This document shows positions 8,181 through 63,200 of a stretch of 64,000 bases of DNA, piece after piece. This stretch comes from Tubulanus polymorphus (lineage: Eukaryota; Animalia; Nemertea): contig NC_134030.1 in NCBI RefSeq assembly GCF_964204645.1, forward strand, positions 15,562,110 through 15,626,109, given 5' to 3'. Position 1 is the first letter of the stretch, and each line of letters starts with the position of its first letter. The notes under the pieces were generated by a model. It was given only the letters and a program-made list of their open reading frames with translations. It did no database searches and was not told the DNA's origin. The position numbers were made by a program, and so were the translations under genes.

Positions 8181-8267
8181 CAGTAATCCAAAATATACCA
8201 GACCGAGTAAATTTCCAAAACGACCTTAACACACTGTTCAATCAAAAAACTTAATGTTCCGCCAAAC

Positions 8268-9718: not shown

Positions 9719-9719
9719 T

Positions 9720-12587
9720 TTGGGCGGCAAAACCAAAATAATGAATTGTCGCGGGCGATAAAACCAAAATAATGAATTGTCTCGTGCGACAAAACCAAAA
9801 TAATAAATTGTCACAGGGCAATAAAACCAAAATAATGAATTATCGCGGGCGATAAAACCAAAATATTGAATTGTCGCAGGCGATAAAACCAAAATAATGA
9901 ATTGTCGCGGGCGACAAAACCAAAAAAAATTGTCGCGGGCGACAAAAACAAAATATAAAACCAAAATAATGAATTGTCGCGGGCGTCAAAATGAAAAGAA
10001 GAATTGTCGCGGGCGACAAAACCAAAATAATGAATTGTCGCTGGAGATAAAACCAAAATATTGAATTGTCGCGGGCGACAAAACCAAACTAATCAATTGT
10101 CGCGGGCGACAAAACCAAAAAAAGAATTGTGGGGGCAACAAAACCAAAATAATGAATTGTCGCGGGCGACAAAACCAAAATGGTGAATGGTCCAGGCGAC
10201 AAAACCAAAATGGTGAATTGTCGCGGGCGACAAAACCAAAATGGTGAATTGTCGCGGGCGACAAAACAAAAAAAGAAGAATTGTCGCGGTCGACAAAACC
10301 AAAATAATGAATTGTCACTGGCGATAAAACCAAAATGGTGAATTGTCCAGGCGACAAAACCAAAATTGTGAATTGTCGCGGGCGACAAAACCAAAATAAT
10401 GAATTGTCGCGGGCGATAAAACCAAAATAATGAATTGTCTCGGGTGACGAAACCAAAATAATGAATTGTCGCGGGCGATAAAACCAAAATAATGAATTGT
10501 CGCGGGCGATAAAACCGAAATAATGAATTGTCGCGGGCGACAAAACCAAAATGGGGAATTGTCGTGGGCGACAAAACCAAAATAATGAATTGTCGCGGGC
10601 GACAAAACCAAAAAAAAAATTGTCACGGGCGACTAAAACAAAATATAAAATCAAAATAATGAATTGTCGCGGGCGACACAACCAAAAAGAAGAATTGTCG
10701 CGGGCGACAAAACCAAAATAATGAATTGTAGCTGGAGATAAAACCAAAGTAATGAATTGCCGCAGGCGACAAAACCAAAATATTGAATTGTCGCGGGCGA
10801 CAAAACCAAACTAATGAATTGTAGCTGGAGATAAAACCAAAGTAATGAATTGTCGCAGGCGACAAAACCAAAATATTGAATTGTCGCGGGCGACAAAACC
10901 AAAGTAATGAATTGTCGCAGGCGACAAAACCAAAATATTGAATTGTCGCGGGCGACAAAACCAAAATAATGAAGTGTCGCGGGCGATAAAACCAAAATAA
11001 TGAATTGTCGCGGGCGATAAAACCAAAATAATGAATTGTCGCGGGCGACAAAACCAAAATGGGGAATTGTCACGGGCGACAAAACCAAAAAGAAGAATTG
11101 TCGCGGGCGACAAAACCAAAATAATGAATTGTCGCGGGCGATAAAACCAAAATATTGAATTTTCGCGGGCGACAAAACCAAAATATTGAATTTTCGCGGG
11201 CGTCAAATCCAAAATATTGAATTTTCGCGGGCGACAAAACCAAAATACTGAATTGTCGCGGGCGACAAAACCAAACTAATGAATTGTCGCGGGTGACAAA
11301 ACCAAAAAAAGAATTGTCGGGGGCGACAAAACCAAAATATTGAATTGTCGCGGGCGACAAAACCAAACTAATGAATTGTTGCGGGCGACAAAACCAAAAA
11401 AAGAATTGTCGGGCGACAAAACCAAAATAATGATTCGTCGCGGGCGATAAAACCAAAATAATGAATTGTCGCGGGCGACAAAACCAAAATGGTGAATTGT
11501 CCAGGCGACAAAACTAAAATGGTGAATTGTCGCGGGCGACAAAACCAAAATAATGAATTGTTGCGGGCGATAAAACCAAAATGATGAATTGTCTCGGGCG
11601 ACAAAACCAAAATAATGAATTGTCGCGGGCGACAAAACCAAAATATTGAATTGTCACGGGCGACAAAACCAAACTAATGAATTGTAGCTGGAGATAAAAC
11701 CAAAGTAATGAATTGTCGCGGGCGACAAAACCAAAATATTGAATTGTCGCGGGCGACAAAACCAAAATGGGGAATTGTCGCGGGCGACAAAACCAAAATA
11801 ATGAATTGTCGCGGGCGACAAAACCAAAAAAAAAATTGTCACGGGCGACTAAAACAAAATATAAAATCAAAATAATGAATTGTCGCGGGCGACACAACCA
11901 AAAAGAAGAATCGTCGTGGGCGACAAAACCAAAATAATGAATTGTAGCTGGAGATAAAACCAAAGTAATGAATTGCCGCAGGCGACAAAACCAAAATATT
12001 GAATTGTCGTGGGCGACAAAACCAAAATGGTGAATTGTCCAGGCGACAAAACTAAAATGGTGAATTGTCGCGGGCGACAAAACCAAAATAAAGAATTGTC
12101 GCGGGCGACAAAACCAAAATGGGGAATTGTCGCGGGCGACAAAACCAAAATAATGAATTGTCGCGGGCGACAAAACCAAAAAGAAGAATTGTCGCGGGCG
12201 ACAAAACCAAAATAATGAATTGTCGGGGGCGACAAAACCAAAATATTGATTTGTCGCGGGCGACAAAACAAAACTAATGAATTGTCGCAGGCGACAAAAC
12301 CAAAAAGAAGAATTGTCGCGGGCGACAAAACCAAAATAATGAATTGTCGCTGGAGATAAAACCAAAATGGTGAATTGTCGCCGGCGATAAAACCGTAATA
12401 ATGAATTGTCGCCGGCGATAAAACCGAAATAATGAATAGTCTCGGGCGACCTAACCGAAATAATGAATTATCGCGGGCGATAAAACCAAAATATTGAATT
12501 GTCGCGGGCGATAAAACCAAAATATTGAATTGTCGCGGGCGACAAAACCAAAAAAAAAATTGTCGCGGGCGACAAAAACAAAATATA
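9720..12587. repeat. 31-bp satellite array
   Basis: Tandem 31-bp units up to the Maverick terminus. Confidence 0.95.
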
Positions 12588-13120
12588 AGTAATAGGGATA
12601 ATAGGCTTTCAGATCAAAGGTCTAAGGGTCGAGCTCGTAAAAAAATGAAAATAATAATAATTTACAGCTGAATTAGTCGCGCACACTCCTAATTCAACTG
12701 TAAATTATTATTATTTTCATTTTTTACTCACTCACCCCTTCAACCTTTGATATGAAAGCCTATTATCCCTAATACTCCTAAAATATTCATATATATGAAT
12801 AAAATATAAATGAATAACTTCTAAAATCAATTTTAATAAAAAATTTGATATTAAAATGGAAACAAATAAGTACTACTGTCCAACATGTAATATCAATATA
12901 GATAAATCCCAAAAAGCAAGGCACAATAAAACTAAAACACATTTAGAGAATAAATTGAAACTAGAATATGAAGATGATATATTAGAAACTAAATTAGATG
13001 AATTAAAGAATGAAAAAGATACATATAAATGTGATACATGTAATCAATCATTCAGTGATAAAAGATATTTTAAAGAACATTTAAAATCTAAAAGTCATAT
13101 TAGAAATAAGAATAATGATA
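12588..13120 (+). repeat. Left TIR of element A (includes 189-bp hairpin 12588-12776, promoter region and first ~88 codons)
   Basis: Reverse complement of 27521-28053 with scattered substitutions. Confidence 0.93.
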
Positions 13121-13506
13121 ACTTATTTTCATTATTTAACATTAAAAATTATATCTCAGCAACAAATTTAGTGTATGGAAGACAATATAAAATTGATAAT
13201 ATTTCTATAATCAATCAAATATTATCAAATGAAGCATATTTAATTATTGAACTGATAGATAATGGAATCAAAAATCCTAACATATTTCATACAGTTTTAA
13301 ATCATAAAGGAACTTTAGATGAAAAAATGATAAATATTCTTGAAACTCCTTTCAATGATAGAAATGATGATTTAATACTTTCTAGAGGTTACAATAATTT
13401 GATTAACTTAAGAATTGATAAAAGACAATTATATTATTTAAATTTGATGATAAACCAATTATCTATAATGAAAATTCATCAAATATTGGTATTCAATGTG
13501 AATTAG
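12856..13506 (+). CDS. Zinc-finger protein whose N-terminus (two C2H2/U1-type fingers) is shared with pPolB through the TIR; probably frameshifted, with a further finger (LCNCGKYYTRSNKSHHLKSK) near 13597-13660
   Basis: First ~88 aa nearly identical to ORF 27785-; unique C-terminus. Confidence 0.7.
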   Translation: METNKYYCPTCNINIDKSQKARHNKTKTHLENKLKLEYEDDILETKLDELKNEKDTYKCDTCNQSFSDKRYFKEHLKSKSHIRNKNNDNLFSLFNIKNYISATNLVYGRQYKIDNISIINQILSNEAYLIIELIDNGIKNPNIFHTVLNHKGTLDEKMINILETPFNDRNDDLILSRGYNNLINLRIDKRQLYYLNLMINQLSIMKIHQILVFNVN

Positions 13507-13710
13507 ATAATAATAATTCTTATAAAGATATTGGAATTCAATGTAATTTAGATGATGAAATTGTTGCGCCTAAATATAATCCTAATGAAAGCGTTTTATG
13601 TAATTGTGGAAAATATTATACTCGAAGCAATAAATCACACCATCTTAAATCAAAATATCAAAATATAACTCCAAATATTAACCAATTTAGTAAAAAAATA
13701 CGTATAATAA

Positions 13711-14366: not shown

Positions 14367-14623
14367 ATGAGAGTTTGAAGAATAATAGAATTTAAATAAA
14401 ATATGATAAAAAAACAATAACTTTAACTGCTTGTGAATTCTATTATATGTTTAATATTTTCTTTTCAAAAAAGAATACTTTATATCACAAATAAAAAATA
14501 CTAAAAAACAATAACTAATACTAAAATTCTTTACCTTTTACTAAGCTAGTATTAATCTAAAGAGATACTGGTATCATTTTATAATACTTATAATATTTTT
14601 CTTATTAAATTTCTCTAATATAA

Positions 14624-15225
14624 ATGTCAAAGAAATCTAATAAGAATAATATTGATATTGAAAAGACATTAGATGATTTGGGTATAAGTGATAATAAAGA
14701 TACAGTTGTAACTAATTGTGCTCAAGTTAATTGTAATATAGATTATGAATACTATTTATATTGTAAACACCATCTAGAACTATTGATTGCCGGTGGAAAA
14801 ACTAAAGAGTTTTTAAATAGAATTATTACTTTTCAAGAATTAGACTCTATGAAACCCGATAAAGTAATAAAATATTTTAAGATTTTGGAGAGGCAAGATG
14901 AGCCCGAATAAATGATTCTATTTCAGATGGTATTGTCAAATGTTATTCTAAGTTATGTAACCAGTTAATACCAATTAATGATGAAAATAAATTATATAGT
15001 GATTTGAAAAATGACTATTTAGTTATGACTGAATTACAAAAATTGGTTGGTTATGCTTCATCTCAAATAGGATCGGTTATGACATTAATTTCTACTGGTG
15101 TCATAACATTTTCGAACATCAAGCCTATGGAATATAAATCAGGTAAGAACGAAACAGATGTACTACAACCAAACGTCGAAACAGAAAATGAATCAGAACA
15201 AAAATTAACTAAAATAAATGAGTGA
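14624..15225 (+). pseudogene. Conserved Maverick hypothetical protein (frameshifted; intact 201-aa homolog at 49588-50193)
   Basis: ORFs 14624-14911 and 15004-15225 align to one ORF in element C. Confidence 0.7.
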
Positions 15226-15577
15226 TAGCGTTAAGAAGAAGCCTAGATCCGAGAAACAAATTATATGGGCAAGAGAATTAGGTAAAAGATCTTCAGAATT
15301 AAAAAAAGCTAAGAAAAAGAAATTAACTGATATAAATGAATCACAGACTTTATCTGATATTGATTCAAATAATAATCCATCTAATTCTTCTAATGCTGGA
15401 AGTAATTATAAATTATATATTACAATTGGATCAGTAACAGTTATTATATTATCCGGCGTAATATATAAATCAAAATTCAAATCTGATGATAAAGATGATT
15501 CAAATGATAATAAACCTATTATACCAGAAAATAAGTCAAATCATAAAGTCATTGAAACTAAATCTAAATTATTATTA
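15218..15577 (+). CDS. Basic protein with one predicted transmembrane helix, in frame with the integrase in this copy
   Basis: Lys-rich N-terminus, hydrophobic LYITIGSVTVIILSGVIY; ATAAATG start; degraded homolog at 49238-49595. Confidence 0.55.
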
Positions 15578-16717
15578 ATGGATAAAAATAAGATGAAAAA
15601 AGAACAATATTTAAGAGAGTTATATTACAACCCAGAGAGTGAAGTATCATATTCTAACGTTTCAGAATTATGGAATAAAATTAAATCTGATAATGAAAAT
15701 GGTGCCGTACGGCACCCACATGGTGATATAAAATATAGTGAATTAAGATTATGGTTACAAAATCAACCAACATATCAAATCCACAAGAAAATGGATAAAA
15801 CTTATTTAACAAGGAAAGTTATGGTTTCATATATCGATCAACAATGGCAAGCAGATTTAATTGATATGAAGAACTTAGAGGAATACAACAAAGGATATTT
15901 CTGGATACTGAATGTTATAGACATATTCAGTAGATACGCATGGTCAATTCCAATCAAAAATAAAACTGGTATAGAATTGACAAATGCTTTTAAATCAATA
16001 TTTAAAGAAGCTATTCCAGATAAGATACAATTTGATGGAGGTAAAGAATTTTATAACAAACATTTTAAAAAACTATTATCTGATAACGATGTAGATTATT
16101 TTTCAACACATTCAGATAAAAAAGCATCTATTATAGAAAGATTTAATAAAACATTGAAAACTAGAATGTGGAAATATTTTACTGCTAATGAAACATAGAA
16201 ATATATCGATGAGTCTAAAAATATATTAGATGATTTAGTGAAAGGTTATAATAATTCTAAACATTCAAGTATTGGTATGAAACCTATACAAGCTAGAAAA
16301 GAAGATAATTCGGAAATAGTTTGGAATAATTTATATGGAGCGTTTGTTACACATGATTTCGGCGAACCTAAATTTAAAATTGGACAACACGTAAGAATAT
16401 CTAAATATAGAAAAACATTTTATAAAGGTTATACCCCAAATTTTACTGAAGAAATATTCAAGATTAAAAAGATAATATTAACTAAACCTTTTGTTTATAA
16501 ATTAGAAGATCTAAAAGATGAAGAAATATTAGGTTATTTCTATGAACAAGAATTATCACTTGTACCAAATCCAGATGAAATAGAATACAAAATAGAAAAA
16601 GTATTGAAAACAAAAACTCTTAAAGGAAAAAAGTATTCTTTGGTGAAATATAAAGGATACGATGATAAATTTAATGAATGGATTTTATCTAGTAAAATTA
16701 AAAGAATAAATGAATAA
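15578..16717 (+). pseudogene. int: Retroviral-like (rve/DDE) integrase with C-terminal chromodomain; premature stop at 16196-16198
   Basis: WQADLIDM, IDIFSRYAW, QFDGGKEF, IERFNKTLK; C-terminal YKIEKVL...LVKYKGYDDKFNEWI. Confidence 0.93.
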
Positions 16718-17276
16718 AGATTTATTTATATTTGAACCGCATAAAATGTTAGTTACTGGAGTAACAAACTGTGGTAAAACACATTTCATATTAGACTTGT
16801 TAGATACTATTTATAAGAATCATTTTGATAATATAATATTATTCTGCCCCACTTATGAAATGAATAAAACATATAATAGAGATATAGTTAAGATGAAAAA
16901 GTTTATTATATTAGATCCTAAAACAGTAAAAGAAAATTTAGATAATTGTATAAAAATAGCAATTGATACTTATAAAGGATCAAATACATTATTCATTATA
17001 GATGATTGCGCTAATTTACATGATTCAAAAGTGAGAGAAAGTGAGTTATGTTATCTAGCTTTCTCTGGGAGACATTTTGGGATAACAACATGGGTTTTAA
17101 ATCAAAAATATAATTCAATTGTTAAAGACTTTAGGGAGAATATAAGATTTCTAGTTTTATTTTATAACAAAGATAGAAAATGTATGCAACAATCATTGGA
17201 AGAAAATCAAATTATACCTACTGAGTTACATGATGTTCTAAAATCTAACCATAATGCATATTTATTACCGGTATAA
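16710..17276 (+). pseudogene. A32/FtsK-like packaging ATPase, 3'-truncated by a deletion
   Basis: Walker A GVTNCGKT, Walker B FIIDD, GRH motif; diverges from the element C copy after ~17233. Confidence 0.88.
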
Positions 17277-18308: not shown

Positions 18309-18328
18309 TTATTTAACAAAAAAATTAA

Positions 18329-23754: not shown

Positions 23755-26700
23755 TTAACACGTTAGAATTCTTTTCATTATCTCGTTCTCTTTTGTTTCT
23801 TCTCTTTTAAATTTTAAGTATTCATCTAAATTACATCCATAAGCAACTGTATGAATTCCATCATCTAAAATATATCTTTTATCATCAAATGGGTTTAGAC
23901 TTATCTTTTCAATTTCTTCAATAAACATTTCATGATCTTCAGATCTTAAACATCTCATTTTATGTTTTCTAACTTCTTCATTGAATATACAATTGATGTA
24001 ATCTTTGAAATGAATATTCTTTTCTACCACATTTTTGGTTTTTCCTTTTAACTTTTTAGCTTCATGTTCTTTAGTTTTATATGAATACATTTTAGATCTA
24101 ATACCAATGAATTCAATCATTTCTTCGCCACCTAATTCATCTTTGAATTTACCGGGAACTTTTTTATTATCATTGCTAAAAAATTCATGATCTTTAGGAT
24201 AGTTACTAAAATCAAAATGATGTTTTAATGTTTTTAAATCATCTGTTATGTTATCAGTTTTTATCTTTAATATGTAACTGTCAGTATCAAAATATAATAT
24301 TTCTATATGTTTTTCTCCAAAAAGTAGTTGTAATATATTATAATAGAATTCATACATTAGTAATTTTGATAATTCTAAAACTGATGCGCCAACATAGATT
24401 GGTTTATTAAATTTCATTGATGTTCTTCTCATTTTAACTGCAGCTAAATTTTCATCAAATATCCTGTTACCTATAAATTTAGGATATGATTGTAAATGTC
24501 TAATTCTTTTACCATTACTAACTAACTCAATATCATTTCTATTTCTAATATTTTCACAAGTCTTACCATAGAATGCATTGTTCATTAACTTGAAGAAATC
24601 TTTTTCGAAATCAGTTTTAGCTTCAGTTCTCTGTTTGGTGTTAAAATCTATATATTTTTCTAACCATTTAGATTGACTAAATGAAATATATCTATGTACT
24701 TTTTTTAGAACCATTCCTTGATTCAAATAAAACTTTAACATTCTATAATGTACTACATAATTATATTTATCTTTTTGAGTTACCATTAACTTTTCTGTAT
24801 GAATATGATTTTCGGGTTTAATTCTTTTTTGGTAATTTGATAATTCTTCATGAGTTACAGTTTTATGTTCGGGACAGTATGCTAGATTTCTAGATTTAAA
24901 TTTTTTATCTTCAGGATATTCTAAATCTACAACAAAGAAGTAACCAGTATCTGAATCATCTGCAATATCTAGAATTCTTTTCTTCCAATCAAATTTATCA
25001 TTATTTTCATTCTGTAAAACTTCAGTTAATTCAAATACTCCATAAGGTTGTGGTTCCATCATTGCCCAACCATACAAATTATTTGCATCTATATATAATA
25101 ACTTATATCCAGGGTTATCATTTACATTGAAATATCTATCCCCTAATACACCTGAAACACCTCCTCTTATAGATTTTTCAAATAATAGTAATTGATCTAT
25201 ATTTGTTAACAAATCCATTTTTATATCCGTAAATTTTAATCCACAATCCCATGTTAAACCTGGTGATGAATAACAATGACATGGATCAATATTAAAATAT
25301 TTTAGGTTAACATCTCTAAACCTTTCGAATATATCGGTTAATAATAATACATCTGATTTTAGAAATCTACTTATTGTCCATGATTTGTTATTTTAAAATG
25401 ATTCCAAATGTTCAATGTTCTGTTATAGACTTCATCTTTAACATATTCATTTTTTAATTCATCATAGAATTGTTCTTTTAATAATTCAGTTATGTTAAAA
25501 TCATTATGATTTTTATAGAAAGAATATGGAATTGCTCCTTTATATCTCATTAATTGGAAATCATCATTATTTGGGTAGTGTTGTTTTAATATTTTCAATT
25601 CATCATCAACTAATGATTTTGATAAGTTATCTAATGAACTATTTAAAAATCTATATGAATCTATAAATCTTAGACAACCAAATTGGAATGATATATAATT
25701 CTCAGATGTTTTAGCTAACATTCTAAATTTATAAGTTGGTATTTTATCTTTTGATCTATTTGAATTTAATCTTTCTATTTCGTTATTAATTTCTTCTATT
25801 TTATGGCATAACTGTTTGATGAATAAATGTGCATCATATCCTGATAGATTATGAAATATAACTGGTACAAAATTAATTTTCTTAGCTTGTAAGTTACAAT
25901 TCTCATGTGCAGCGCCTCTAAACTTTCCGTTCAAATGATCATGGTCTCTTACTTTTTTATCTTTATAATTAAATATCTTTTCACAATAATAACATTTATC
26001 TGCAAACGCAAATGCTTCTTTATCTTCTTCTGTCATTATAATTTCTATATTTGTATTCAATAATTTACTAAATCTTATTTCATATTCAATTAATAAGTCA
26101 CAAAAATGATTGATAACATTTTCAATTCTGTAATTATAATATTCACTTTCAATTAGTTCTGGATAATCAGATTTAATATATAACCCGAAAGCAGCAGCTG
26201 ATTGATGAATCTTTTTAATAGTATTTGTTTTTGGTGGTTCATCTGAAAAATCATTTTCATTAGAATTTAATTTCTTTCTTTTATAATATATTTCTTTTCT
26301 ATCTTGATCAGTTAGTTCTTTATTTAATGATTCAAAATCTCCATATATAACAAATGGATCTTCATTTTTGTAATCATATTTTTTGAATTCTAATATTTTA
26401 TCTTTTTCATTTGGTAAAACTAATTTACAATAATCATGATTTTCACATAATTGTTTATGATTCAATAATGTACTTTCATTACTGAATCTATGTAAACATT
26501 TTCTACAAAGATATATTTTATTATGGTGATCACTTTCCGTTCTAAAGAATAAATCTATTTGTTTAATCCACATATAATGATTCTCATAATATAATATATC
26601 TATAACATCATTTGAATCATAATCTTTTGATAGATATAAAGGTTCTAATGTATAATGTTTTATATTGTTACCTTTTGTATTTGGTAATTTGATTAAATCA

Positions 26701-27785
26701 AATACGTTTATTCTTAAATTATTATCTCTTTCTATTTTTGGGATGTTTTTGATTATAACAGGATACTTATCTATCTTATAATTATTTTCAAATGGTTTAT
26801 AATGAGTTAATCTACAAATATTATAAGTTGCAGGATGTAAACAACTTATTATAGCCCATAGAAAACATTTATCATCTTCATTTTGTACATTTATTACAGC
26901 TTTAGTTTTAAATGGTAGTTTAATATAACTCGATGCTTCAATATCTGGTTCTTTATGATATGATACATTATTTTCATCAATTGGTTTTGATTTAGTTAAC
27001 TTATTACATTTTGTGTTATAAACATGTAAAGTCATAAATATTATTTCATCAAATATTAAACCAGATCCTTCAAAAAATTTCTCTTCTATTTTAGTTTTTA
27101 CTTCATTATAACATTTATCTAATTTATCATCTATATGTTGTTTTGAAATAATATGTTGTGAATGAGAATTTATATTATATATTGGTTTATCTTCAGATTT
27201 TATGAATTTAACTTTTGATGAAATACTTATTTTAGGATATTCAACATCAGTTATTATTTTTATTATTTCTTTCATATTTTCTAAATGTTTTTTATTTTCT
27301 TCTAATGTTTTTCCTTTATGAAATTTAAACTCGATAGCTGCTGGGCCAATATCACTTTTAAATGCTTCGGTTATCTCTATATCTTTTTTATTATCTAATG
27401 AATTAATATATTTTCTTACATCTTCCATGTATGGTCTTTTATTGTTTAATTTATTTTGTATGCTTTTAATTGTCTTCTGTTTCTTATCATTATCTTTATC
27501 AAAATAATCTTCACCTAAAATATCATTATTCATATTTCTAATATGACTTATAGATTTTAAATGTTCTTTATAATATCTTTTATCACTGAATGATTGATTA
27601 CATGTATCACATTTATATGTTTCTTTTTCATTCTTTAATTCATCTAATTTAGTTTCTAATATATCATCTTCATATTCTAGTTTCAATTTATTGTCTAAAT
27701 GTGTTTTAGTTTTATTGTGTCTTGCTTTTTGGGATTTATCTATATTGATATTACATGTTGGACAGTAGTACTTATTTGTTTCCAT
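23755..27785 (-). pseudogene. polB: Protein-primed family B DNA polymerase (pPolB) with ZnF, OTU-like and EndoVII/HNH inserts; disrupted near 25371
   Basis: ExoI YGDFES, ExoII FHNLSGYD, motif A YIDANNLYGWAM, motif B KLMNNAFYGK, motif C YFDTDS; KVRDHDHLNGKFRGAAHENCNL. Confidence 0.95.
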
Positions 27786-28053
27786 TTTAATATCAAATTT
27801 TTTATTAAAATTGATTTTAGAAGTTAATCATTTATATTTAATTCATATATATGAATATTTTAAGAGTAATAGGGATAATAGGCTTTCAGGTTAAAGGTTG
27901 AAGGGGCGAGTGAGTAAAAAATGAAAATAATAATAATTTACAGTTGAATTAGGAGTGTGCGCGACTAATTCAACTGTAAATTATTATCATTTTCATTTTT
28001 TTACGAGCTCGACCCTTCGACCTTTGATCTGAAAGCCTATTATCCCTATTACT
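27521..28053 (-). repeat. Right TIR of element A (hairpin 27865-28053)
   Basis: Inverted copy of 12588-13120. Confidence 0.93.
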
Positions 28054-34839: not shown

Positions 34840-36229
34840 TTATTAGGGAAAAAAATTACTTGTGGTGATGAGTGGTGTCTCGTACTCTCGTACTCTGGTA
34901 TGAAACCCACATCTTCCAATTACTGTCAGCGTTGTGATAACCTTTGATCTGTGGTCAGTGGACAGCAGCTACGAAACATTTAAAACTACTACATTATCAT
35001 TCCATCTATATTCATATATATGATATGATATGATATCTTCTTTAATCTTCCGTTTAAAAGTCTTGAACGTAAAAGTTCGATAAGTTTCGCATGTTGGTAC
35101 CGATACGCACGTTCATGCGAGTGAAATGTGCACGTTACAGGCTCAAATGCGCACGTTACAATAACAAATCGAAACGTTGTTCGTTTAAAACCCTACATAA
35201 AAATCTTATGCATTTAGTGAGAAATTTCAAAGTTTCAAAGTTCGCTCGCTACCTACAACAAAAATCGGACAAGACTTTTCAAGCGACAAAGTTAAATGTA
35301 AGAGCTAGTAGTACTAACAAAGGATTCAGGCAATACCCGTGTCATTTCTAAAACATTCAACCGGTAAATAGACAGAACTGATGTAGCTTGTACAGGTAAA
35401 AAGAAGAGTTGTTATATTTACGTTCAGGCCAAATGAAATCATTTGATACCAGACACGACTAAGTTGTTTCCGAAACAGATCCATATAGCTATGTGGTCAG
35501 TATTGGTCAAAAATTGGTCAGTTAAATAGTTGTTTGATCATAGCCCGCACCATATCTAGTCGCTCGACGCCCAAACACGATTTTATGGCTTTACTAAACA
35601 TATAAATTACTTATGGTGGGCTCTGGTTAGCACTGGTAACTGGTCAGTATTGGTGAAGCATTGGTCAGTTAAACAATTTTTAGATTAATGTCCACATCAT
35701 ATCTAGTTATTGACACCAAACAAATATATTGATTGCAAAACAAATAATTTACTATATGGCTAGTACCGGGTACTGGTCATGCATTGGCCAGTTAATAGAC
35801 AAGGTCCACGGCACGAGTTATTTGATACCAAACATGATTGGATTGTGTCGTTTCGAAAATTTATCTGTTGGGCAATTTGACTGTGGTCTGCCCTGGTTCG
35901 TGAGGTTCTTATTTTGCCGGCATTTTATCTCGAACACCGAAAGACTAAATTACTAATTAATTCAACAGATCATTAATCAATGGAAATGAAGATCAGTGTT
36001 TAACTAATAGTCCTTATTCTGAATAAATGTCTCTGGTATGGGTGCTATGGTGCTTGGAATCAGGTCCTTAACTGTACACCGTACTGTATCTTTGTACTGT
36101 ATCTTTTTATTTTCACTACTACCGTAATTGACTATGATGTTTTCAAGTGGTCTTAAGTACCGCTAATAGCCGAAAGTCGTTGATTTATGTGAAATTTACA
36201 TACAGCGCCACCCGTTGGTAGTAAAACTA

Positions 36230-36264: not shown

Positions 36265-36814
36265 CAAACCGGCATTCTCATAATGTACATTTATAATTCA
36301 TAGATTATCAGCTGATTTACTGTAATCAATCATTCCTTTGCGATTTTGATATTACTCTAGTAATAGGGATAATAGGCTTTCAAGCCAAAGGTCGAGAGGT
36401 CGAGAAATTTTCCAAATATGAAAATAACAATAATTTCTAGTTGAATTAGTCGCGCACACTCATAATTCAACTAGAAATTATTGTAGTTTTTTCATATTTG
36501 TAAAATTTCTCAACCTCTCAACCTTTAGCTTGAAAGCCTGTTATCCCTATTACTCTTAAAATATTCATATACATGAATAAAATATATATGAATAACATAT
36601 AAAAGTAATAGGAAAAGTGGGGTTTCAGATCAGAGGACGGAGGACGAGCCATTATAAATAGATATATAGATATATTTTTAACATATTTCAATATTTATAT
36701 TTGTATGAGTTAGATTTTTAAACATAAAAAGTGTGAGTAAAGTGTGATTGAAATAATTCATATTTAAATCATTGAACTTCTAAAATCAATTTAAGAAAAA
36801 AATTTAGTATTAAA

Positions 36815-52279: not shown

Positions 52280-52727
52280 AGTAATAGGGATAATAGGCTT
52301 TCATACCAAAGGTCGAAAGGTCGAGAAATTTTCCAAATGTGAAAATAACAATAATTTCTACTTGAATTAGTCGCGTACACTCCTAATTCAAGTAGAAATT
52401 ATTATTATTTTAACTTTTGGAAAATTTCTCAACCTCTCAACCATTGATATGAAAGCCCTATTACTCTTAAAATATTCATATACATGAATAAAATATAAAT
52501 GAATAACATATATAAGTAATTAGAAATTGTGGCTTTCAGATCAGAGTACGAGAGTACGAGCTCTTATAAAATAGATATATAGATATATTTTAAACATATT
52601 TCAATATTTATATTTGTATGAGTTAGATTTTTAAACATAAAAAGTGTGAGTAAAGTGTGATTGAAATAATTCATATTTAAATCATTGAACTTCTAAAATC
52701 AATTTTTAAAAGAAATTTAGTATTAAA

Positions 52728-55700
52728 ATGGAAGCAAATAAGTACTACTGTTCAACATGTAATATCAATATAGATAAATCCCAAAAAGCAAGACACAATA
52801 AAACTAAAACGCATTTAGAAAATAAATTAAAGTTAAAATATGAAGATGATATATTAGAAACTAAATTAGATGAATTAAAGAATGAAAAAGAAACATACAA
52901 ATGTGATACATGTAATCAATCATTCAGTGATAAAAGATATTATAATGAACATTTAAAATCTAAAAGCCATATTAGAAATATGAATAATGATATTTTAGGT
53001 GAAGATTATTTTGACAATGATAAGAAACATAAGACAATTTAAAGAATAAGAAATAAATTAATCAATAAAAGACCATACATGGAAGATGTAAGAAATTATA
53101 TTAATTCATTAGATAATAAAAAAGATATAGAAATAACCGAAGCATTTAAAAGTGATATTGGTCCAGCTGCTATTGAGTTTAAATTTCATAAAGGAAAAAC
53201 ATTAGAAGAAAATAAAAAACATTTAGAAAATATGAAAAATATTAAAAAAATAAATAACTGATGTTGAATACCCTAAAATTAGTATATCTTCTAAAGTAAA
53301 GTTTATAAAATCTGAAGATAAACCAATATATAATATAAATTCTCATTCACAACATATTATATCTAAACAACATATAGATGAAAAATTAGATAAATATTAT
53401 AATGAAGTAAAAACTAAAATAGAAGAGAAATATTTTGAAGGGTCTGGTTTAATATTTGATGAGATAATATTTATGACTTAAAATGTTTATAACACAAAAT
53501 ATAATAAGTTAACTAAATCAAAACCAATTGATGAAAATAATGTATAATATTATAAAGATGATAGTATAAATGGAACAAGTTATATTAAACTACCATTTAA
53601 AACTAATGCTGTAATAAATGTACAAAATTTTGATGATAAATGTTTTCTATGGACAATTATAAGTTGCTTACATCCAACAGAAGATATTACACATAGTTTT
53701 AGATTAACACATTATAAACCATTTGAAAATAATTATAAGATATATAATTATCCTGTTAGAATTAAAAATATCCCAAAAATAGAAAGAGATAATAATCTAA
53801 GAATAAATGTATTTGATTTAATCAAATTACCAAATACAAAAGGTAACAATATAAAACATTATACATTAGAACCTTTATACCTATCAAAAGATTATAATTC
53901 AAACGATGTTATAGATATACTATATTATGAGAATCATTATATGTGGATTAAACAAATAGATTTATTTTTTGAACAGAAAGTGATCACCATAATAAAATAT
54001 ATCTATGTAGAAAATGTTTACATAAATTCAGTAATGAAAGTACATTATTAAATCATAAACAATTATGTGAAAATCATGATTATTGTAAATTAGTTTTACC
54101 AAATGAAAAGGATAAAATATTAGAATTAAAAAAATATGATTACAAAAATAAAGTACCAATTGTTATATATGGAGATTTTGAATCATTAAATAAAGAATTA
54201 ACTGATCAAGATAGAAAAGAAATATATTGTAAAAGAAAGAAATTAAATTCTAATGAAAATGATTTTTCAGATGAAACACAAAAAACAAATACAATTAAAA
54301 AGATTCATCAATCAGCTGCTGCTTTTGGATTATATATAAAATCTGATTATCCAGAACTAATTAAAAGTGAATATTATCATTATAGAAATGAAAATGTTAT
54401 CAATCATTTTTTTGACTTATTAATTGAATATGAAATAAAATTTAATGAAAAGTTAAATGAAAATATAGAAATTATAATGACAGAAGAAGATAAAGAAGCA
54501 TTTGCGTTTGCAGATAAATGTTATTATTGTGAAAAGATATTTAATTATAAAGATAAAAAAGTAAGAGACCATGATCATTTGAACGGAAAGTTTAGAGGCG
54601 CTGCACATGAGAATTGTAACTTACAAGCTAAGAAAATTAATTTTGTACCAGTTATATTTCATAATCTATCAGGATATGATGCACATTTATTCATCAAACA
54701 GTTATGCCATAAAATAGAAGAAATTAATAACGAAATAGAAAGATTAAATTCAAATAGATCAAAAGATAAAATACCAACTTATAAATTTAGAATGTTAGCT
54801 AAAACATCTGAGAATTATATATCATTCCAATTTGGTTGTCTAAGATTTATAGATTCATATAGATTTTTAAATAGTTCATTAGATAACTTATCAAAATGAT
54901 TAGTTGATGATGAATTAAAAATATTAAAACAACATTATCCAAATAATGATGATTTTCAATTAATGAGATATAAAGGAGCGATTCCATATTCTTTCTATAA
55001 AAATCATAATGATTTCAATATAACTGAATTATTGAAAGAACAATTCTATGATGAATTAAAAAATGAATATGTTAAAGACAAAGTATATAATAGAACATTG
55101 AATATTTGGAATCATTTTGGAATGAAAAATCATGGACAATTAGTAGATTTATATTTAAAATCAGATGTATTATTATTATCGGATATATTCGAAAGGTTTA
55201 GAGATGTAAACCTAAAACATTTCAATATTGATCCTTGTCATTGTTATTCTATTCCAGGTTTAACATGGGATTTACAGATATAAAAATGGATTTGTTAACA
55301 AATATAGATCAATTATTATTATTTGAAAAATCTATAAGAGGAGGAGTTTCAGGTGTATTAGGCGATAGATATTTCAATGTAAATGATAACCCTGGATATA
55401 AGTTATTATATATAGATGCAAATAATCTTTATGGTTGGGCAATGGTGGAACCACAACCTTATGGAGTATTTGAAATAAGTGAAGTTTTACAGCATCAAAA
55501 AATTATAAATTTGATTGGAAGAAAAGAATCCTAGATATTGCAGATGATTCAGATACTGGTTACTTCTTCGTTGTAGACTTGGAATATCCTGAAGATAAAA
55601 TATTTAAATCTAGAAATCTAGCATACTGTCCAGAACATAAAACTGTAACACATGAAGAATTATCAAGTTATCAAAAAAGAATTAAACCCGAAAATCATAT

Positions 55701-56748
55701 TCATACAGAAAAGTTAATGGTAACTCAAAAAGATAAATATAATTATGTAGTACATTATAGAATGTTGAAGTTTTATTTAGATCAAGGAATGATTCTAAAA
55801 AAAGTACATAGATATATTTCATTTAGTCAATCTAAGTGGTTAGAAAAATATATAGATTTTAACACCAAGCAGAGAACTGAAGCTAAAACTGATTCCGAGA
55901 AGGATTTCTTCAAGTTAATGAATAATGCATTCTATGGTAAGACTTGTGAAAATATTAGAAATAGAAATGATATTGAGTTAGTTAGTAATGGTAAAAGAAT
56001 TAGGCATTTACAAACATATCCTAAATTTATAGGTAACAGAATATTTGATGAAAATTTAGCTGCAGTTAAAATGAGAAGAACATCTATGAAATTTAATAAA
56101 CCAATTTATGTTGGAGCATCAGTTTTAGAATTATCAAAATTACTAATGTATGAATTCTATTATAATGTATTACAACCTCATTTTGGAGAAAAACATATAG
56201 AAATCTTATATTTTGATACTGACAGTTACATATTAAAGATAAAAACTAATAACATAACTGATGATTTAAAAACATTTAAACATCATTTTGATTTCAGTAA
56301 TTATCCTAAAAATCATGAATTCTTTAGCAATGATAATAAAAAGCGACCCGGTGAATTCAAAGATGAATTAGGTGGTGAAGAAATGATAGAATTCATTGGT
56401 ATTCGATCTAAAATGTATTCATATAAAACTAAAGAACATGAAGCTAAAAAGTTAAAAGGAATAACCAAAAGTGTAGTAGAAAAGAATATTCATTTCAAAG
56501 ATTACATCAATTGTATATTCAATGAAGAAGTTAGAAAACATTAGATGAGATGTTCAAGATCAGAAGATCACGAGATGTTTATTGAAGAAATTGAAAAGGT
56601 TAGTTTGAATCAATTTGATGATAAAAGATATATTTTAGATGATGGAATTCATACAGTTGATTATGGTTGCAATTTAGATGAATACTTAAAATTTTAAAGA
56701 GAAGAAACAAAAGAGAACGAGATTATGAACAGGATTCTAACGTGTTAA
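52728..56748 (+). pseudogene. polB: pPolB of element D, with multiple stops and frameshifts
   Basis: ORF fragments carry the pPolB motifs; empty YFDTDS site. Confidence 0.92.
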
Positions 56749-56777
56749 TCAAATGTTAATAAAAATATGTTATTAAA

Positions 56778-57131
56778 ATGCAGAGTAAACAAACACACAG
56801 TGAGAACAACAAATTATTTCTAGATAGAATAAAAGATACTTCAAATGTCAAATCAGTAGATTATAAATTTAAGAAGTTAAAAGAATTAACAATCCATAAG
56901 AAATATCTAATTACAGATATTGTTACAGTTACTAACAAATATGGAGATAAATTAGTTATACACTTAGAATATGAAGGATTAAAAGGAAATACATATAAAT
57001 TCAGAACATATTTACCCGATAGATTTCATAGATTATCAAGTGAAGATTTAGAAGAATTATGTTCTGGAGATTTCTATTTCGTATACAAAGGTAAGAATGA
57101 AAAAGGGCACCATGAAATAGATTTCGAATAA
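56778..57131 (+). CDS. 117-aa hypothetical protein
   Basis: Intact homolog of 23372-23725. Confidence 0.65.
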   Translation: MQSKQTHSENNKLFLDRIKDTSNVKSVDYKFKKLKELTIHKKYLITDIVTVTNKYGDKLVIHLEYEGLKGNTYKFRTYLPDRFHRLSSEDLEELCSGDFYFVYKGKNEKGHHEIDFE

Positions 57132-57148
57132 GAAAATATGTAAAATAA

Positions 57149-58006
57149 ATGGTAGAATTAAAAGAATACAGAATATTTGTTGATTCTAGAAGACTTACAA
57201 ATTATAAATCACATAATTTACTTGTACAGTTAGATAGAGAATTCAAGAATTGTGTTGATTTAAAATTAGTTAATATAAGTTTATGTAATTCTTTTTATAA
57301 TATATCGAATAGAACTATTGAACATAGAGCCTTTTTAATTCTTGATAAAGGTAAAAATGAATGGTCTTATATATATTTAAAACCGGGGTTATATAATTTA
57401 GATACATTAGCACAAGAAATTAATAGAAAAGCCTTGCACAAATTAGGTAGTAACTCCGGGTTTAGTATTAGATTTTTAAAAAGTGATTGTTCTGATAGAA
57501 TAAAGATAAGGTTGTCTAATAGTGAAAAACATAAATTTATGGTAAAAAAACCTATAGCTAAACTGTTAGGAATTCTTCCAGATAGATCTTTTAAAAATAT
57601 TGATGCTGTTACACCAAACTTAATACCTTACACGCATTTTTATATTTATTGCAATTTAATCGATCCTACAAAAACATTCGAAGCAACTAAAGATATAACT
57701 TGTAATTCTGGTTTATTAAACATTTTACCATTGAAGAATGTTAAAGAATTTGGAACACAAATAAATTATAATTTAACAGAATGTGATTTCAAACCATGCA
57801 TTCCTCGTTTTAATAATTTTAGATTAGAAATTAGAAATCACAATGGATACTTAATTGATTTAAATAATTTAGAAATATTTAAAATGGGAAGTGTTAATGT
57901 TGATAAATTTGATATCAATGATATTCTAAAATTAACATTAGCAGTTACTTTATCTAATTTAACTATTGATTATTTGGAAAAACAAAAATATATTCCTCCT
58001 ATATAA
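57149..58006 (+). CDS. Minor capsid protein fused in frame (by deletion) to the C-terminus of the 73-aa protein
   Basis: mCP up to IDLNN, then IFKMGSVNVDKF...KYIPPI. Confidence 0.7.
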   Translation: MVELKEYRIFVDSRRLTNYKSHNLLVQLDREFKNCVDLKLVNISLCNSFYNISNRTIEHRAFLILDKGKNEWSYIYLKPGLYNLDTLAQEINRKALHKLGSNSGFSIRFLKSDCSDRIKIRLSNSEKHKFMVKKPIAKLLGILPDRSFKNIDAVTPNLIPYTHFYIYCNLIDPTKTFEATKDITCNSGLLNILPLKNVKEFGTQINYNLTECDFKPCIPRFNNFRLEIRNHNGYLIDLNNLEIFKMGSVNVDKFDINDILKLTLAVTLSNLTIDYLEKQKYIPPI

Positions 58007-58030
58007 ATGCATAATTATTTTACTAAATAA

Positions 58031-58444
58031 ATGGCTTCTGCAGTTATAACTATTATAGGATCGGCAATTGTTAACGCTTTAGCATTTACTGGTGGTGGTT
58101 ATTTATCTAAACATATTGATAAAAATGGATCATTAACAGAACAAAAAAGACATAACTTAGCATTAGAGAAATACAATAAAGATTCAGAAGAATATAGAGA
58201 AAAAAGGCAAAACTATATTAACAAGGAATTATATGATCAGAAGATTTCACATAGAGATTTTCAATCAGTTGATGATGCAATGAGTTTATATAACGCGGTA
58301 ACCAATAGAGAAAAATTACATCTATACAAACCTAATTTATCAGATTATTATACCCCAAGTAAAGAACAACAGAAATATGAAATAATATGGATTTTAGGCG
58401 GAACTGTTATTGTTATATTTGTAGCGTATAGATTTACTAATTAG
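58031..58444 (+). CDS. 137-aa membrane-associated hypothetical protein
   Basis: Hydrophobic N- and C-termini; homologs in A and C. Confidence 0.68.
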   Translation: MASAVITIIGSAIVNALAFTGGGYLSKHIDKNGSLTEQKRHNLALEKYNKDSEEYREKRQNYINKELYDQKISHRDFQSVDDAMSLYNAVTNREKLHLYKPNLSDYYTPSKEQQKYEIIWILGGTVIVIFVAYRFTN

Positions 58445-58464
58445 TTACTTTTTTTGCTAAATAA

Positions 58465-58889
58465 ATGGATGGTAATATTGATATTATACCTCATGATATA
58501 AATAAAACTAAATTAGAAATATATTTAGAAAAACAAATATTAGAATTTGAAAGTGACTTAAAGATAAAAAAGAAAAAATATTTAAAAAGTAAAATTATAT
58601 ATTATTTTATTATAAGTGGTTCGGTTACAATTAGTTCTGTAATAACATTTTAGCAATATTCAGTCCATTAACACCTCTAGCTATATCGATTGGTGTATTA
58701 GGATTAAGTTCAAGTGTATTAACTGGTATAAGTTCAAAATTAAATATAAAAAGTAATAAAGAAAAAATTAAAACTAATATAAAAGAAATTAATAAATTGA
58801 AGAATACACTAGATTATATAATAAGTTTAAATGGCCATATAACAGTTGAAGAACAAGATAAATTATTAAAAGAATTAATAAATTATTAG
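58465..58889 (+). pseudogene. Two-TM hypothetical protein, frameshifted
   Basis: Homolog of 42216-42650. Confidence 0.62.
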
Positions 58890-58916
58890 TTAATTATTAA
58901 TTTTTTAATTATATAA

Positions 58917-60195
58917 ATGGGGTTTCCAAAAGCTTTCCAATATAATAAATCAATTAAATATAATATTCCTGCAATAGATTTTTAAAAAAATATTACATAT
59001 AAAAATTTAGTTTTAAATTCATTAACTAATTTAGAAATTTATGTTACTGAATCACAGTTTTTATTTCTAAAATGGAAAATATATTTAATACATATGAAGT
59101 TACTTTTACTCGAGATGAATATCATATATATAAAGTAAAATCTAATATGAAATATTGGCAGAATCAATTAAATTTTGCTGTTTATTGTGCGACAACTGGT
59201 TGTGGTATAAGTTGGAATGATCATTGAAATAACTTAGATAAAAATTTGAATTATTCTGATTTAAAATTAATTCACACAATATTTAGATTTCACACATATT
59301 TTCAAATCAGAATAATATCAAATGAATTAGAATGTCCTTTACCCGGATCTAAATATTTTAAAGAATTGGATAATAATATTAATCTATCTAAGTTTTATAA
59401 AATATGTAATGAATTTAATATGAATATTAAATCCAATTGCAAGGTATTGGTGAAGAGTATGAAATAAAAAGAATTGATTATATGCATAGAATTTCAGCTT
59501 ATCATAATTATAAAATTGATAATAATAATGGTTGGATTAATTTCATTTTAGAAAATAGTGTAGGTTTTACTAAAGCTGGAATACAAAGAATAAATCAATC
59601 TATTAGAACTTATTTGATATGTATTCTAGGTGCGCAAGTTGAAACAAGATCACCAATAGTTGGAAATAACACTTCATTCGATGCGCAGAAACAATTCAAA
59701 GTATTATTTGAAGATTCAATTCATAATGATAAAAATAGATCGATTCCAGAAAACATTGTAAGATATCAAAATTATTTAGATAAATCACATATTAGATTAA
59801 ATAATGGTATAGGCCCTAATCTATTAATTATTTCTAATGATTTAGTATTAAAGATGGGAAATATAATTGGTTATAATAATTTAATTAAAACTGCAACAAT
59901 AAATAATTCATTTGGATTGAATGATATAAATAAAAAGATTATTACTGCTCCAAAATTAATGGAAGGTGAAAAAAATAAAAAACATATTCAATCAACAGAA
60001 ACTAAAACTAAGAATATTAAATTGAATAATGATTCTAAAATAAAAGATTACAATACATCAGAAAATATAAAAACTGATAATATTCAACATGATATAATTA
60101 AAACTAATGATGATAATAAATCCCATGAAAATGCTAAATTAGCTATAACTTGTATAGGAATTGTAATAGGAGGAATATTATATTTTAAATTTTAA
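58917..60195 (+). pseudogene. Homolog of the 438-aa protein, disrupted
   Basis: ORFs 59246-59467 and 59437-60195 align to 42667-43983. Confidence 0.68.
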
Positions 60196-60254
60196 TTTTT
60201 TTATTTTATAGATGGAAGTAGAAAGGATTGAAATGGATCATTTAGATGAGCCTG

Positions 60255-63200
60255 AGTAATAGGGGTAATAGGCTTTCAAGCCAAAGGTCGAACGGTCGAG
60301 CTCGTAAAAAATGAAAAAACATAAAAATAATTACAATTTCTACTTGAATTACTCGCAAAACTCATAAAAATGAAAAATAAATTCTCACACGCTCGAATTT
60401 ATTTTTCATTTTATGAGTTTCACTCCTAATTCAAGTAGAAATTGTAATTATTTTTATGTTTTTTCATTTTTACTCACCCGCCCGTTCAACCTTTAGCTTG
60501 AAAGCCTATTACCCCTATTACTCTTAAAATATTCATTTAAATCATTGAACTTCTAAAATCAATTTTAATAAAAAATTTAGTATTAAAATGGAAGCAAATA
60601 AGTACTACTGCCCAACATGTAATATCGATATAGATAAATCCCAAAAAGCAAGACACAATAAAACTAGAACACATTTAGAGAATAAATTGAAACTAGAATA
60701 TAAAGATGATATATTAGAAACTAAATTAGAAGAATTAAAGGATGAAAAAGAAACATACAAATGTGATACATGTAATCAATCATTCAGTGATAAAAGATAT
60801 TATAAAGAACATTTAAAATCTATAAGTCATATTAGAAATAAGAATAATGATATTTTAGGTGAAGATTATTTTGATAATGATAACGATAAGAAACAGAAGA
60901 CAATTAAAAGAATAAAAAATAAATTAAACAATAAAAGACCATATATGGAAGATGTAAGAAATCATATTAATTCATTAGATAATAAAAAAGATATAGAGAT
61001 AACCGAAGCATTTAAAAGTGATATTGGTCCAGCAGCTATCGAGTTTAAATTTCATAAAGGAAAAACAATAGAAGAAAATAAAAAACATTTAGAAAATATG
61101 AAAGAAATAATAAAAATAATTACAGATGTTGAATATCCTAAAATAAGTATATCAGTTAAAGTAAAGTTTATAAAATCTGAAGATAAACCAATATATAATA
61201 TAAATTCTCATTCATAACATATTATATCTAAACAACATATAGATGATAAATTAAATAAATGTTATAATGAAATAAAAACTAAAATAGAAGAGAAATATTT
61301 TGAAGGATCTGGTTTAATATTTGATGAAATAATATTTATGACTTTACATGTTTATAACACAAAATATAATAAGTTAACTAAATCAAAACCAATAGATGAA
61401 AATAATTTATCATATTATAAAGATGATAGTATAAATGGAACAAGTTATATTAAACTACCATTTAAAACTAATGGTGTAATAAATATACAAAATTTTGATA
61501 ATAAATGTTTTATATGGGCTATAATAAGTTGTTTACACCCAGTTGAAGATTATAAACAACATAGTTTTAGATTAACTCATTATAAACAATTTGAAAATAA
61601 TTATAAGATAGATAAGTATCCTGTTAGAATTAAAAATATTCCAAAAATAGAAAGAGATAATAATTTAAAGATAAATGATAAATTGATTTAATCAAATTAC
61701 CAAATACAAAAGGAAATAATATTAAACATTATACATTAGAACCTTTATACCTATCAAAAGATTCTGATTCAAATGATGTTATAGATATATTATATTATGA
61801 GAATCATTATATGTGGATTAAACAAATAGATTTATTTTTTAGAACAGAAAGTGATCACCATAATAAAATATATCTATGTAGAAAATGTTTACATAAATTT
61901 AGTAATGAAAGTACATTATTAAATCATAAACAACTATGTGATAATCATGATTATTGTAAATTAGTTTTACCAAATGAAAAGGATAAAATATTAGAATTCA
62001 AAAAATATGATTACAAAAATAAAGTACCATTTGTAATATATGGAGATTTTGAATCATTAAATAAAGAATTAACAGATAAAGATAGAAAAGATATATATTA
62101 TAAAAGAAAGAAATTAAATCTAATGAAAGTGATTATTCAGAAGAACCACCAAAAACAAATACTATTAAAAAGATTCATCAATCAGCTGCAGCTTTCGGGT
62201 TATATATTAAATCTAATTATCCAGAACTAATTGAAAGTGAATATTATAATTACAGAAATGAAAATGTTATCAATCATTTTTGTGACTTATTAATTGAATA
62301 TGAAATAAAATTTAATGAAAAGTTGAATAAAAATATAGAAATAATTATGACAGAAGAAGATAAAGAAGAATTTGAGTTTGCAGATAAATGTTATTATTGT
62401 GAAAAGATATTTAATTATAAAGATAAAAAAGTAAGAGACCATGATCATTTGAATGGAAAGTTTAGAGGCGCTGCACATGAGAATTGTAACTTACAAGCTA
62501 AGAAAATTAACTTTGTACCAGTTATATTTCATAACCTATCAGGATATGATGCACATTTATTTATCAAACAGCTATGTCATAAAATAGAAGAAATCAATAA
62601 TGAAATAGAAATATTAAATTCAAATAGATCAAAAGATAAAATACCAACTTATAAATTTAGAATGTTAGCTAAAACATCTGAGAATTATATATCATTCCAA
62701 TTTGGTTGTCTAAGATTTATAGATTCATATAGATTTTTAAATAGTTCATTAGATAACTTATCAAAATCATTAGTTGATGATGAATTGAAGATATTAAAAG
62801 AATATTACCCAAATAATGATGATTTTCAATTAATGAGATATAAAGGCGCAATTCCATATTCTTTCAATAAAAATCATAATGATTTTAAAATAACTGAATT
62901 ATTGAAAGAACAATTTTATGATGAATTAAAAAATGAATATGTTAAAGATGAAGTCTATAATAGAACATTGAATATTTGGAATCATTTCAAAATAGAAAAT
63001 CATGGGCAATTAGTAGATTTATATTTAAAATCAGATGTATTATTATTAACCGATATATTCGAAAGGTTTAGAGATGTAAACCTAAAATATTTCAATATTG
63101 ATCCTTGTCATTGTTATTCATCACCAGGATTAACATGGGATTGTGGATTAAAATTTACAGATATAAAAATGGATTTGTTAACAAATATAGATCAATTATT

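Follow-up and report, generated by a model that had tools for sequence, protein, structure and literature searches.

Long imperfect palindromes with co-varying arms at the termini of a Maverick/Polinton lineage in the nemertean Tubulanus polymorphus

Mavericks/Polintons are modelled as purely protein-primed replicons, although experiments have yet to establish how they replicate. Their terminal inverted repeats (TIRs) reportedly extend over several hundred bp, start with a 5′-AG tip and are usually accompanied by a 6-bp duplication. In the window, by which we mean the whole 64,000-nt stretch of Tubulanus polymorphus DNA under study, there are five imperfect palindromes of 186–268 bp, each sharing its first base with a Maverick/Polinton copy that opens with AGTAAT... 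(Table 1). An earlier sequence-only reading had proposed five fold-back termini; all are present at the positions that it gave, and so are the bounding strings that it quoted (AGTAATAGGG...CCCTA(T/A)TACT). The repeat search recovered the arms of all five independently, with 84–92% complementarity, and folding of the + strand as single-stranded DNA gave −64.6, −75.3, −73.0, −54.4 and −101.8 kcal/mol in coordinate order. The first 150 nt of the left-end palindrome of A (12588–12776) reached −33.6 kcal/mol against −8.4 ± 1.9 kcal/mol for 200 dinucleotide shuffles (z = −13.2), none of which folded as well. The 24-nt tip has nine matches in the window at ≤3 mismatches, where 100 shuffles gave an expectation of zero, and these nine are five outer and four inner arms, all inside the five hairpins. 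A chance origin of the palindromes was rejected on this z-score and this excess of tip matches. The 12-nt loop TCGCGCACACTC occurs in C and at both ends of A, the right end showing it reverse-complemented when the + strand is read, while D has TCGCGTACACTC, one transition away. A shared loop had been described for every terminus except that of E, and this is what we see: in E a nested, nearly perfect palindrome (60361–60417), with its own loop TCACACGCTC, separates the loop halves TCGC... and ...CACTC. The hairpins are A/T-rich and incompletely paired, with kept mismatches, and in A they form the outermost 189 bp of each ~540-bp TIR.

Table 1. Positions of the palindromes, elements, genes and simple termini in the window
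Feature	Position	Strand	Description
Left-end palindrome of A	12588..12776	+	outer arm 12588–12676, loop TCGCGCACACTC at 12677–12688, inner arm 12689–12776
Right-end palindrome of A	27865..28053	-	left palindrome reverse-complemented; oriented alike with respect to the tip
Palindrome of C, PolB-side end	36359..36554	+	repeat search, fold
Palindrome of D, PolB-side end	52280..52465	+	inner arm lacks 8 nt
Palindrome of E, PolB-side end	60255..60522	+	268 nt; loop split by nested palindrome
Left TIR of A	12588..13125	+	~540 bp, 96% to right TIR; hairpin, 80-bp spacer, first codons of zinc-finger ORF
Right TIR of A	27516..28053	-	96% match to left TIR
A, rve integrase	15218..16198	+	Pfam
A, chromodomain ORF	16277..16717	+	Pfam
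A, A32-like packaging ATPase	16710..17276	+	Pfam
A, PolB N-terminal ORF (804 aa)	25371..27785	-	C2H2 zinc fingers, Exo I, EndoVII-like insert, Exo II
A, EndoVII-like insert (PolB residues 584–633)	25887..26036	-	between Exo I and Exo II
Element C	36359 to ~52231		without far end
Element D	52280..60254		blastn against A
Element E	60255 to window end		blastn against A
Copy B terminus, simple, non-palindromic	34850..34924	-	inward AGTAATTGG... then tandem GAGTACGA units; 85 bp from PolB start
Third, diverged B-like terminus in C (AGTAATAGG...)	36604..36649	+	50 bp inside hairpin, direct orientation
Third, B-like terminus in D	52515..52560	+	50 bp inside hairpin

Judged from their sequences, the elements that carry the palindromes are proviruses of one Maverick/Polinton lineage. 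Element A spans 12588–28053 (15,466 bp) and is embedded in a 31-bp satellite. A Pfam scan of 28 ORFs identified an organellar/viral-type PolB, an A32-like ATPase and an rve integrase accompanied by a chromodomain, and capsid proteins were matched weakly. The PolB profile was matched at E = 3.2e-17 in copy E and 5.6e-13 in copy B, the rve integrase (PF00665) at 36.3 and 40.2 bits (cut-off 32.6) with a chromodomain alongside, and the Pox_A32 packaging ATPase at 45.7 bits; among the window ORFs Capsid_N reached 19.7 bits against a cut-off of 24, and no protease family was found by Pfam among the 36 window ORFs and two ORFs of L001, a metagenome locus described below. In A, the remainder of PolB is a separate ORF (23755–25218, 487 aa). 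These elements resemble known Mavericks/Polintons in their long TIRs, their 5′-AG tip, the combination of a protein-primed PolB (pPolB) with an rve integrase and an A32 ATPase, and a PolB that adjoins one end. They differ from described Mavericks in that the outermost 186–268 bp of the TIR are palindromic from base 1, with co-varying arms, and in that the flanks of A have only TATA in common, 4 bp that are their own reverse complement, in place of the usual 6-bp duplication. Elements C, D and E, which were found by blastn against A, each have one end in the window and begin at the PolB-side tip in the same orientation. Their arrangement is best read as nesting, with E apparently inserted in D and D in C, so that four independent insertions, including A, would be represented. 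Coding sequence is part of the TIR of A, and for this reason a left-end zinc-finger ORF of 216 aa (12856–13506, +) has its first ~90 codons in common with the right-end PolB ORF on the − strand.

According to the sequence-only reading, the arms differ between copies and yet stay complementary. All the arm variants that it gave (TTTACAGTTG/CAACTGTAAA, TTTCTAGTTG/CAACTAGAAA, TTTCTACTTG/CAAGTAGAAA and AGGGGTAAT/ATTACCCCT) were found, and covariation was assessed on an alignment of the five window termini, each read from the tip inward, for which RNAalifold predicts 82 pairs. Seventeen of the 82 stem pairs were changed on both sides with pairing kept, against 8.8 ± 1.7 in shuffles; the five termini come from four elements, which share ancestry with one another and with the one outside relative. 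Double-change cells numbered 27 against 10.4 ± 2.2, and 95.3% of 400 cells were paired against 89.3 ± 0.8%; on each of the three measures, none of 500 shuffles scored as high. When the partners were slid by 1–3 columns as a control, 0–2 double-changed pairs were left. The arms have thus diverged and kept their complementarity, above the level of both shuffles and slid controls. The left and right ends of A differ by six one-sided changes and no compensated ones, whereas any two elements differ by 4–11 compensated pairs as well as 4–11 one-sided changes, which indicates that compensation takes place during propagation and that decay after insertion goes uncompensated. In addition, the hairpins are 78–83% identical between lineages (89% for C versus D), compared with 86–94% for long matches elsewhere in the elements; they diverge faster than the rest and still pair, so pairing has been kept through fast change.

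Compensated changes are found over the full 88 nt of the arm, the A/T-rich stretch beside the loop being no exception, and the covarying pairs are clustered (columns 25–27 and 86–89). This clustering fits patchwise copying from arm to arm as well as it fits selection. Copying of this kind is central to an explanation in which the hairpin is a by-product without a role: the terminus would have been duplicated once in inverted orientation, and its arms would since have been homogenised by panhandle or fold-back repair or by gene conversion among the four arm copies. Terminus duplications do occur in the lineage, a third copy being found inside C, D and L001, the 96% likeness of A's TIRs over 540 bp implies that some homogenising process exists, and the covarying pairs do come in runs. 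We nevertheless regard this explanation as unlikely, because the loop is conserved and because two further properties of the stems speak against it.

The first is a C·A mismatch (GGTCGA against TCAACC), which had been noted as persisting across copies and is indeed present in 5/5 termini, at alignment columns 35 and 236 (12622/12742 at the left end of A). It lies 35 nt from the tip, and the pairs on both sides of it have co-varied while the mismatch itself was kept. The second is a strand bias of the imperfect positions. When every mismatch site is given a single count, 11 have C opposite A or A opposite C in the 5′-ended strand, and hence a G·T wobble in the 3′-ended one, versus two of the opposite kind, a bias that undirected copying between arms does not predict; a further 11 sites are of transversion type. 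The raw tally of mismatches in six hairpins, which takes in the columns next to the loop, is 35 versus 2, and the stems of L001 have the same bias (3 versus 0, in an alignment read by eye). Consistent with these counts, the 3′-ended strand, which terminates in the tip, has the more stable fold in 5/5 window hairpins, by 4.4–10.1 kcal/mol; in L001 there is no strand difference, with −70.0 kcal/mol on both. The bias fits selection on the 3′-ended strand, or single-strandedness of that strand. It would also suit an RNA of the outward-reading strand, in which the G·T excess would reflect tolerance of G·U; transcripts running outward would then fold into a hairpin, for example as a small-RNA precursor. 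Such an RNA is very unlikely in our view, since no Rfam family was matched in the window, an outward promoter would be required at both ends, and there would be no explanation for palindrome and element sharing the same first base.

Sequencing reads allowed us to examine the left end of A in other data from the same species label. We inspected reads on 12480–12900 from one size-fractionated library of a 2026 Illumina DNA run, together with Logan contigs from three other runs. The hairpin was covered throughout, at a depth of ~1000–2700 (mate directions summed), compared with ~1300–2100 for the interior and ~68,000 for the satellite. The possibility that the hairpins are an assembly artefact was rejected, as Illumina reads cover the whole structure including the loop and an independent assembly has the same architecture. 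Loose ends just before 12588 were seen in 1506 reads, and their flanks disagreed (consensus agreement 0.34), from which it follows that the family is inserted at many sites and that the element starts at 12588; among the rows listed there were no loose ends at 12776. Complementary variants occurred at similar frequencies on the two arms: A>G at 12598 in 37% and T>C at the paired 12766 in 47% of reads, A>G at 12603 in 34% and T>C at 12761 in 35%, and A>G at 12613 in 37% and T>C at 12751 in 34%, with similar shares also for the pairs 12655/12710 and 12664/12701, all of these being per-position shares and not linkage. At three positions where A-left has a private, pair-breaking letter (12623, 12668 and 12772), 98–99% of reads carry the letter that pairs.

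Flip and flop isomers of the loop, which had been suggested as something to look for, did not appear. All six termini (the five in the window and that of L001) have one orientation, and among the 40 listed of 151 read differences there are no letters expected of a loop inversion. Symmetric hairpin transfer as in AAV or poxviruses, from which both flip and flop arise, is therefore not supported. The single orientation fits asymmetric resolution or, alternatively, linear protein-primed copying in which the fold is a signal for origin function, packaging or protection. No pile-up of molecule starts or ends at 12588 was reported in the Illumina library, and thus no free linear form was seen in it.

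The same data bear on whether the hairpin is part of the Maverick at all. It has the tip–arm–loop–arm–tip layout of a miniature inverted-repeat element, and might be conceived of as a small non-autonomous fold-back unit, two Maverick tips placed back to back, that was inserted beside Maverick ends. This we consider highly improbable: the hairpin has the same position in each of four independent insertions and occurs at either end of A, with the flanks diverging exactly at its outer base; its read depth is not far above that of the interior; and no solo copy exists in the window, where 9/9 tip matches fall within the five hairpins. What lends the idea some colour is the structure of the inner termini. 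Copy B (~29.4–34.9 kb, 73–80% identical to A), whose PolB contains an intein, has a simple end, and the hairpin is consequently not universal in the clade. A B-like terminus also lies inward of the hairpins of C and D, which makes it seem that a simple end came first and later acquired the hairpin module on its outer side. A and E are without this inner segment; from a reading of the sequences, they probably lost it through deletions between short similar strings.

A further source of comparison is provided by relatives outside the window. The nearest proteins to PolB are metagenome sequences at 65–72% identity, and a metagenome scan for PolB relatives yielded six loci, among which a comparable end was found only in L001. 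This locus encodes a 71% identical PolB as a single, intact ORF of 1363 aa. The L001 element begins at 190 with AGTAATGG, and its 257-nt terminal palindrome (−70 kcal/mol) ends at 446 with CCATTACT. Both of its arms have changed relative to the window copies and still pair, the orientation is that seen in the window, a third copy of the tip is present at 948, and the centre of the palindrome holds a GC-rich mini-hairpin. Between the palindrome and the tip copy at 948 lies a 121-aa ORF (571–936) without a convincing family, which the window copies do not have at that place. In L004 (PolB 39% identical), about ten tandem 61-bp units, each a palindrome with a 15-bp stem, are located upstream of PolB (2546–3250), which amounts to a different TIR architecture made of repeated hairpins, and no inverted repeat of at least 20 nt was found in L005; in L002, L003 and L006 the match lies too close to the contig edge for the upstream end to be included. 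The exact 24-nt tip had no match in the viral contig collection, PolB relatives were absent from the viral contigs in both single-protein and alignment searches, and none was found in the genome contigs. Taken together, the compensated differences, the fixed mismatch and a diverged palindrome that is still paired in a relative with 71% PolB identity bear out the proposal that the hairpin is kept as a structure.

The termini also contain what could be binding sites. Tandem 8-mers are present as GGTCGAGA in the outer arm, GAGTACGA in B and GGGCGAGA in L001, and together with the AGTAAT tip they recur in all terminus copies, as one might expect of sites for a protein. The two arms could on that account be a pair of inverted sites for the integrase or the terminal protein that change together to fit the same protein, the DNA never being folded. 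We think this decidedly unlikely. Compensation extends over the whole 88-nt arm, its A/T-rich, loop-side part included, and nowhere in the hairpins is pairing poorer than in the 8-mer region, which is imperfect in L001 too (GGGCGAGA versus CTCAACC...), with a C·A. Moreover, the growth of the centre is itself palindromic, as in the nested palindrome of E and the mini-hairpin of L001, which is predicted by a structure and not by paired protein sites.

We therefore conclude that the structure is maintained, and we consider a function in end replication likely but unproven. The reading that we prefer, to which we assign a probability of roughly 0.5, is that selection has preserved the palindromes as snap-back hairpins of the 3′ strand, which would serve end replication beside the protein-primed polymerase. 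The 3′-ended strand would become single-stranded, either by being displaced in strand-displacement synthesis or after unwinding of the end; its last ~190 nt would fold on themselves, and the paired 3′-OH could prime synthesis of the complementary strand. Alternatively, the fold could be used as an origin or packaging structure that is read by the complex of PolB and terminal protein. Since the palindrome stays complete in the chromosome after rve-type integration, the integrating form would have to be an unfolded duplex that carries the outer arm at its tip. A self-primed hairpin might, speculatively, be reopened by a nick close to the kept mismatch, for which the EndoVII-like insert of PolB might be responsible. 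Against hairpin priming counts the fact that a protein-primed PolB needs no hairpin.

The nuclease invoked here would be the EndoVII-like domain that had been recognised in pPolB from the sequence. It scores above the Pfam cut-off of 23.6 in A (26.4 bits) and C (24.3 bits) and just below it in E (23.2 bits), with a motif that reads CxxC...DHDH...N, and it is plausibly a structure-specific nuclease, as predicted from these matches. A PDB sequence search with the 804-aa PolB ORF returned C2H2 zinc-finger matches only and no EndoVII structure. The domain is annotated on 12/48 PolB relatives, a wide distribution that provides no specific link to hairpins. A fully hybrid mode of end replication, in which the 3′ strand primes itself on the palindrome and the EndoVII-like nuclease nicks at the kept C·A so that the end is reopened in one fixed orientation, appears to us quite unlikely. 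If true, it would constitute a polymerase-borne counterpart of asymmetric hairpin resolution in parvoviruses and would give PolB viruses another route to end replication, making two in all.

In parvoviruses, as exemplified by the ITR of AAV, the outer part of the ITR is palindromic, the 3′ end pairs with itself, and rolling-hairpin replication with the HUH protein Rep/NS1 produces flip and flop forms. The ends described here are similar in that the palindrome extends to the very 3′ end, so that the 3′-OH would be paired, and in that imperfect pairing is kept. They differ in belonging to a 15.5-kb double-stranded DNA provirus with its own PolB, in having flop in 0/6 termini, and in their gene content, no HUH nickase (Rep/NS1) being found by Pfam among the 36 window ORFs and two L001 ORFs.

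Adenovirus and other protein-primed replicons use a protein-primed family B polymerase and have identical inverted ends, and their ITRs are not self-complementary. Our elements share with adenovirus a protein-primed PolB, inverted ends and a short direct repeat at the tip (GTAATAGG / ATAATAGG) of the jumping-back kind; unlike adenovirus ITRs, their ends are self-complementary. In the accessible parts of the respective papers, bidnavirus ITRs are described as forming no parvovirus-like hairpins (PMC4061559), and ITRs of adintoviruses are mentioned without hairpins (PMC8502044).

Another parallel comes from endogenous virophages and one PLV subtype in Halocafeteria seosinensis, in which, according to the available portion of a preprint, palindromes lie within TIRs adjoining target-site duplications, an example being 52 nt long (bioRxiv 10.64898/2026.07.28.741278). 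There the palindromes are found preferentially with non-pPolB replication genes, and hairpin priming was proposed, with accidental annealing as the alternative (10.64898/2026.07.28.741278). The palindrome within a TIR at the element edge is common to both cases as far as that portion goes, whereas the ends reported here are 186–268 nt long, go with a pPolB, and have covariation, a kept mismatch and a strand bias. Full-text literature searches turned up no account of pPolB Mavericks with self-complementary ends of ~200 bp; the founding papers, which lay outside the scope of these searches, may bear on this. The earlier claim that these ends are unlike those of described Mavericks is supported by these searches only, and 52-nt palindromes had already been reported in virophages and PLVs. 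The long, covarying palindromes of pPolB elements extend to true Mavericks an idea that, going by the part of the preprint available, had so far been proposed only for non-pPolB virophages and PLVs.

In vaccinia virus, mismatches in the hairpin matter for packaging or virion maturation rather than DNA synthesis, as stated in the accessible text of PMC8956199. The hairpins in the window are like the telomeres of poxviruses and asfarviruses, so far as that text describes them, in being A/T-rich and incompletely paired; in those telomeres the mismatches are functional and structure counts over sequence. Covalently closed ends with flip and flop are, however, what defines poxvirus and asfarvirus telomeres, and here only integrated copies were seen, in one orientation. 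No RuvC-type resolvase was found by Pfam among the window ORFs, the EndoVII-like insert of PolB being present instead. If the hairpin does serve the copying of ends, a hairpin step would be added to a group thought to use protein priming alone. The palindromes are in any case candidates for a concrete cis element by which a pPolB element might replicate its ends, be packaged or be excised. The hairpin, the mismatch, the loop and the EndoVII-like insert are defined biochemical substrates, and the very many copies of the family in this organism suit a genome-wide comparison.

Several other features of the locus were observed. The intein of copy B (29761–31143, −) matched Intein_splicing at E = 6.9e-7 (29.6 bits, cut-off 35.8) and LAGLIDADG_3 at E = 1.4e-5, and had no match in the scanned ORFs of A, C, D and E. 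Beside B, a 124-aa ORF (29390–29764, +) matched VLTF3, a poxvirus late transcription factor (E = 2.8e-7, 30.9 bits, cut-off 25), and the truncated edge of B (29231–29355) consists of 2.3 tandem copies of a 54-bp palindromic unit (ACAGAAAACCCTA...TAGGGTTTTCTGT) that may be the end of another element. Inside C, a 53-nt inverted repeat (96%) surrounds 243 bp (50755–51103) and may represent a small inserted inverted-repeat element. The 31-bp satellite (unit AATTGTCGCGGGCGACAAAACCAAAATAATG, with higher-order periods of 62 and 93 bp) flanks A at 1–12587 and 28054–28320, and a 154/155-bp satellite is interspersed at 281–710 and 8640–9394. The Illumina depth of the 31-bp satellite is ~25–70 times that of the Maverick hairpin, and this satellite is therefore a major component of the genome.
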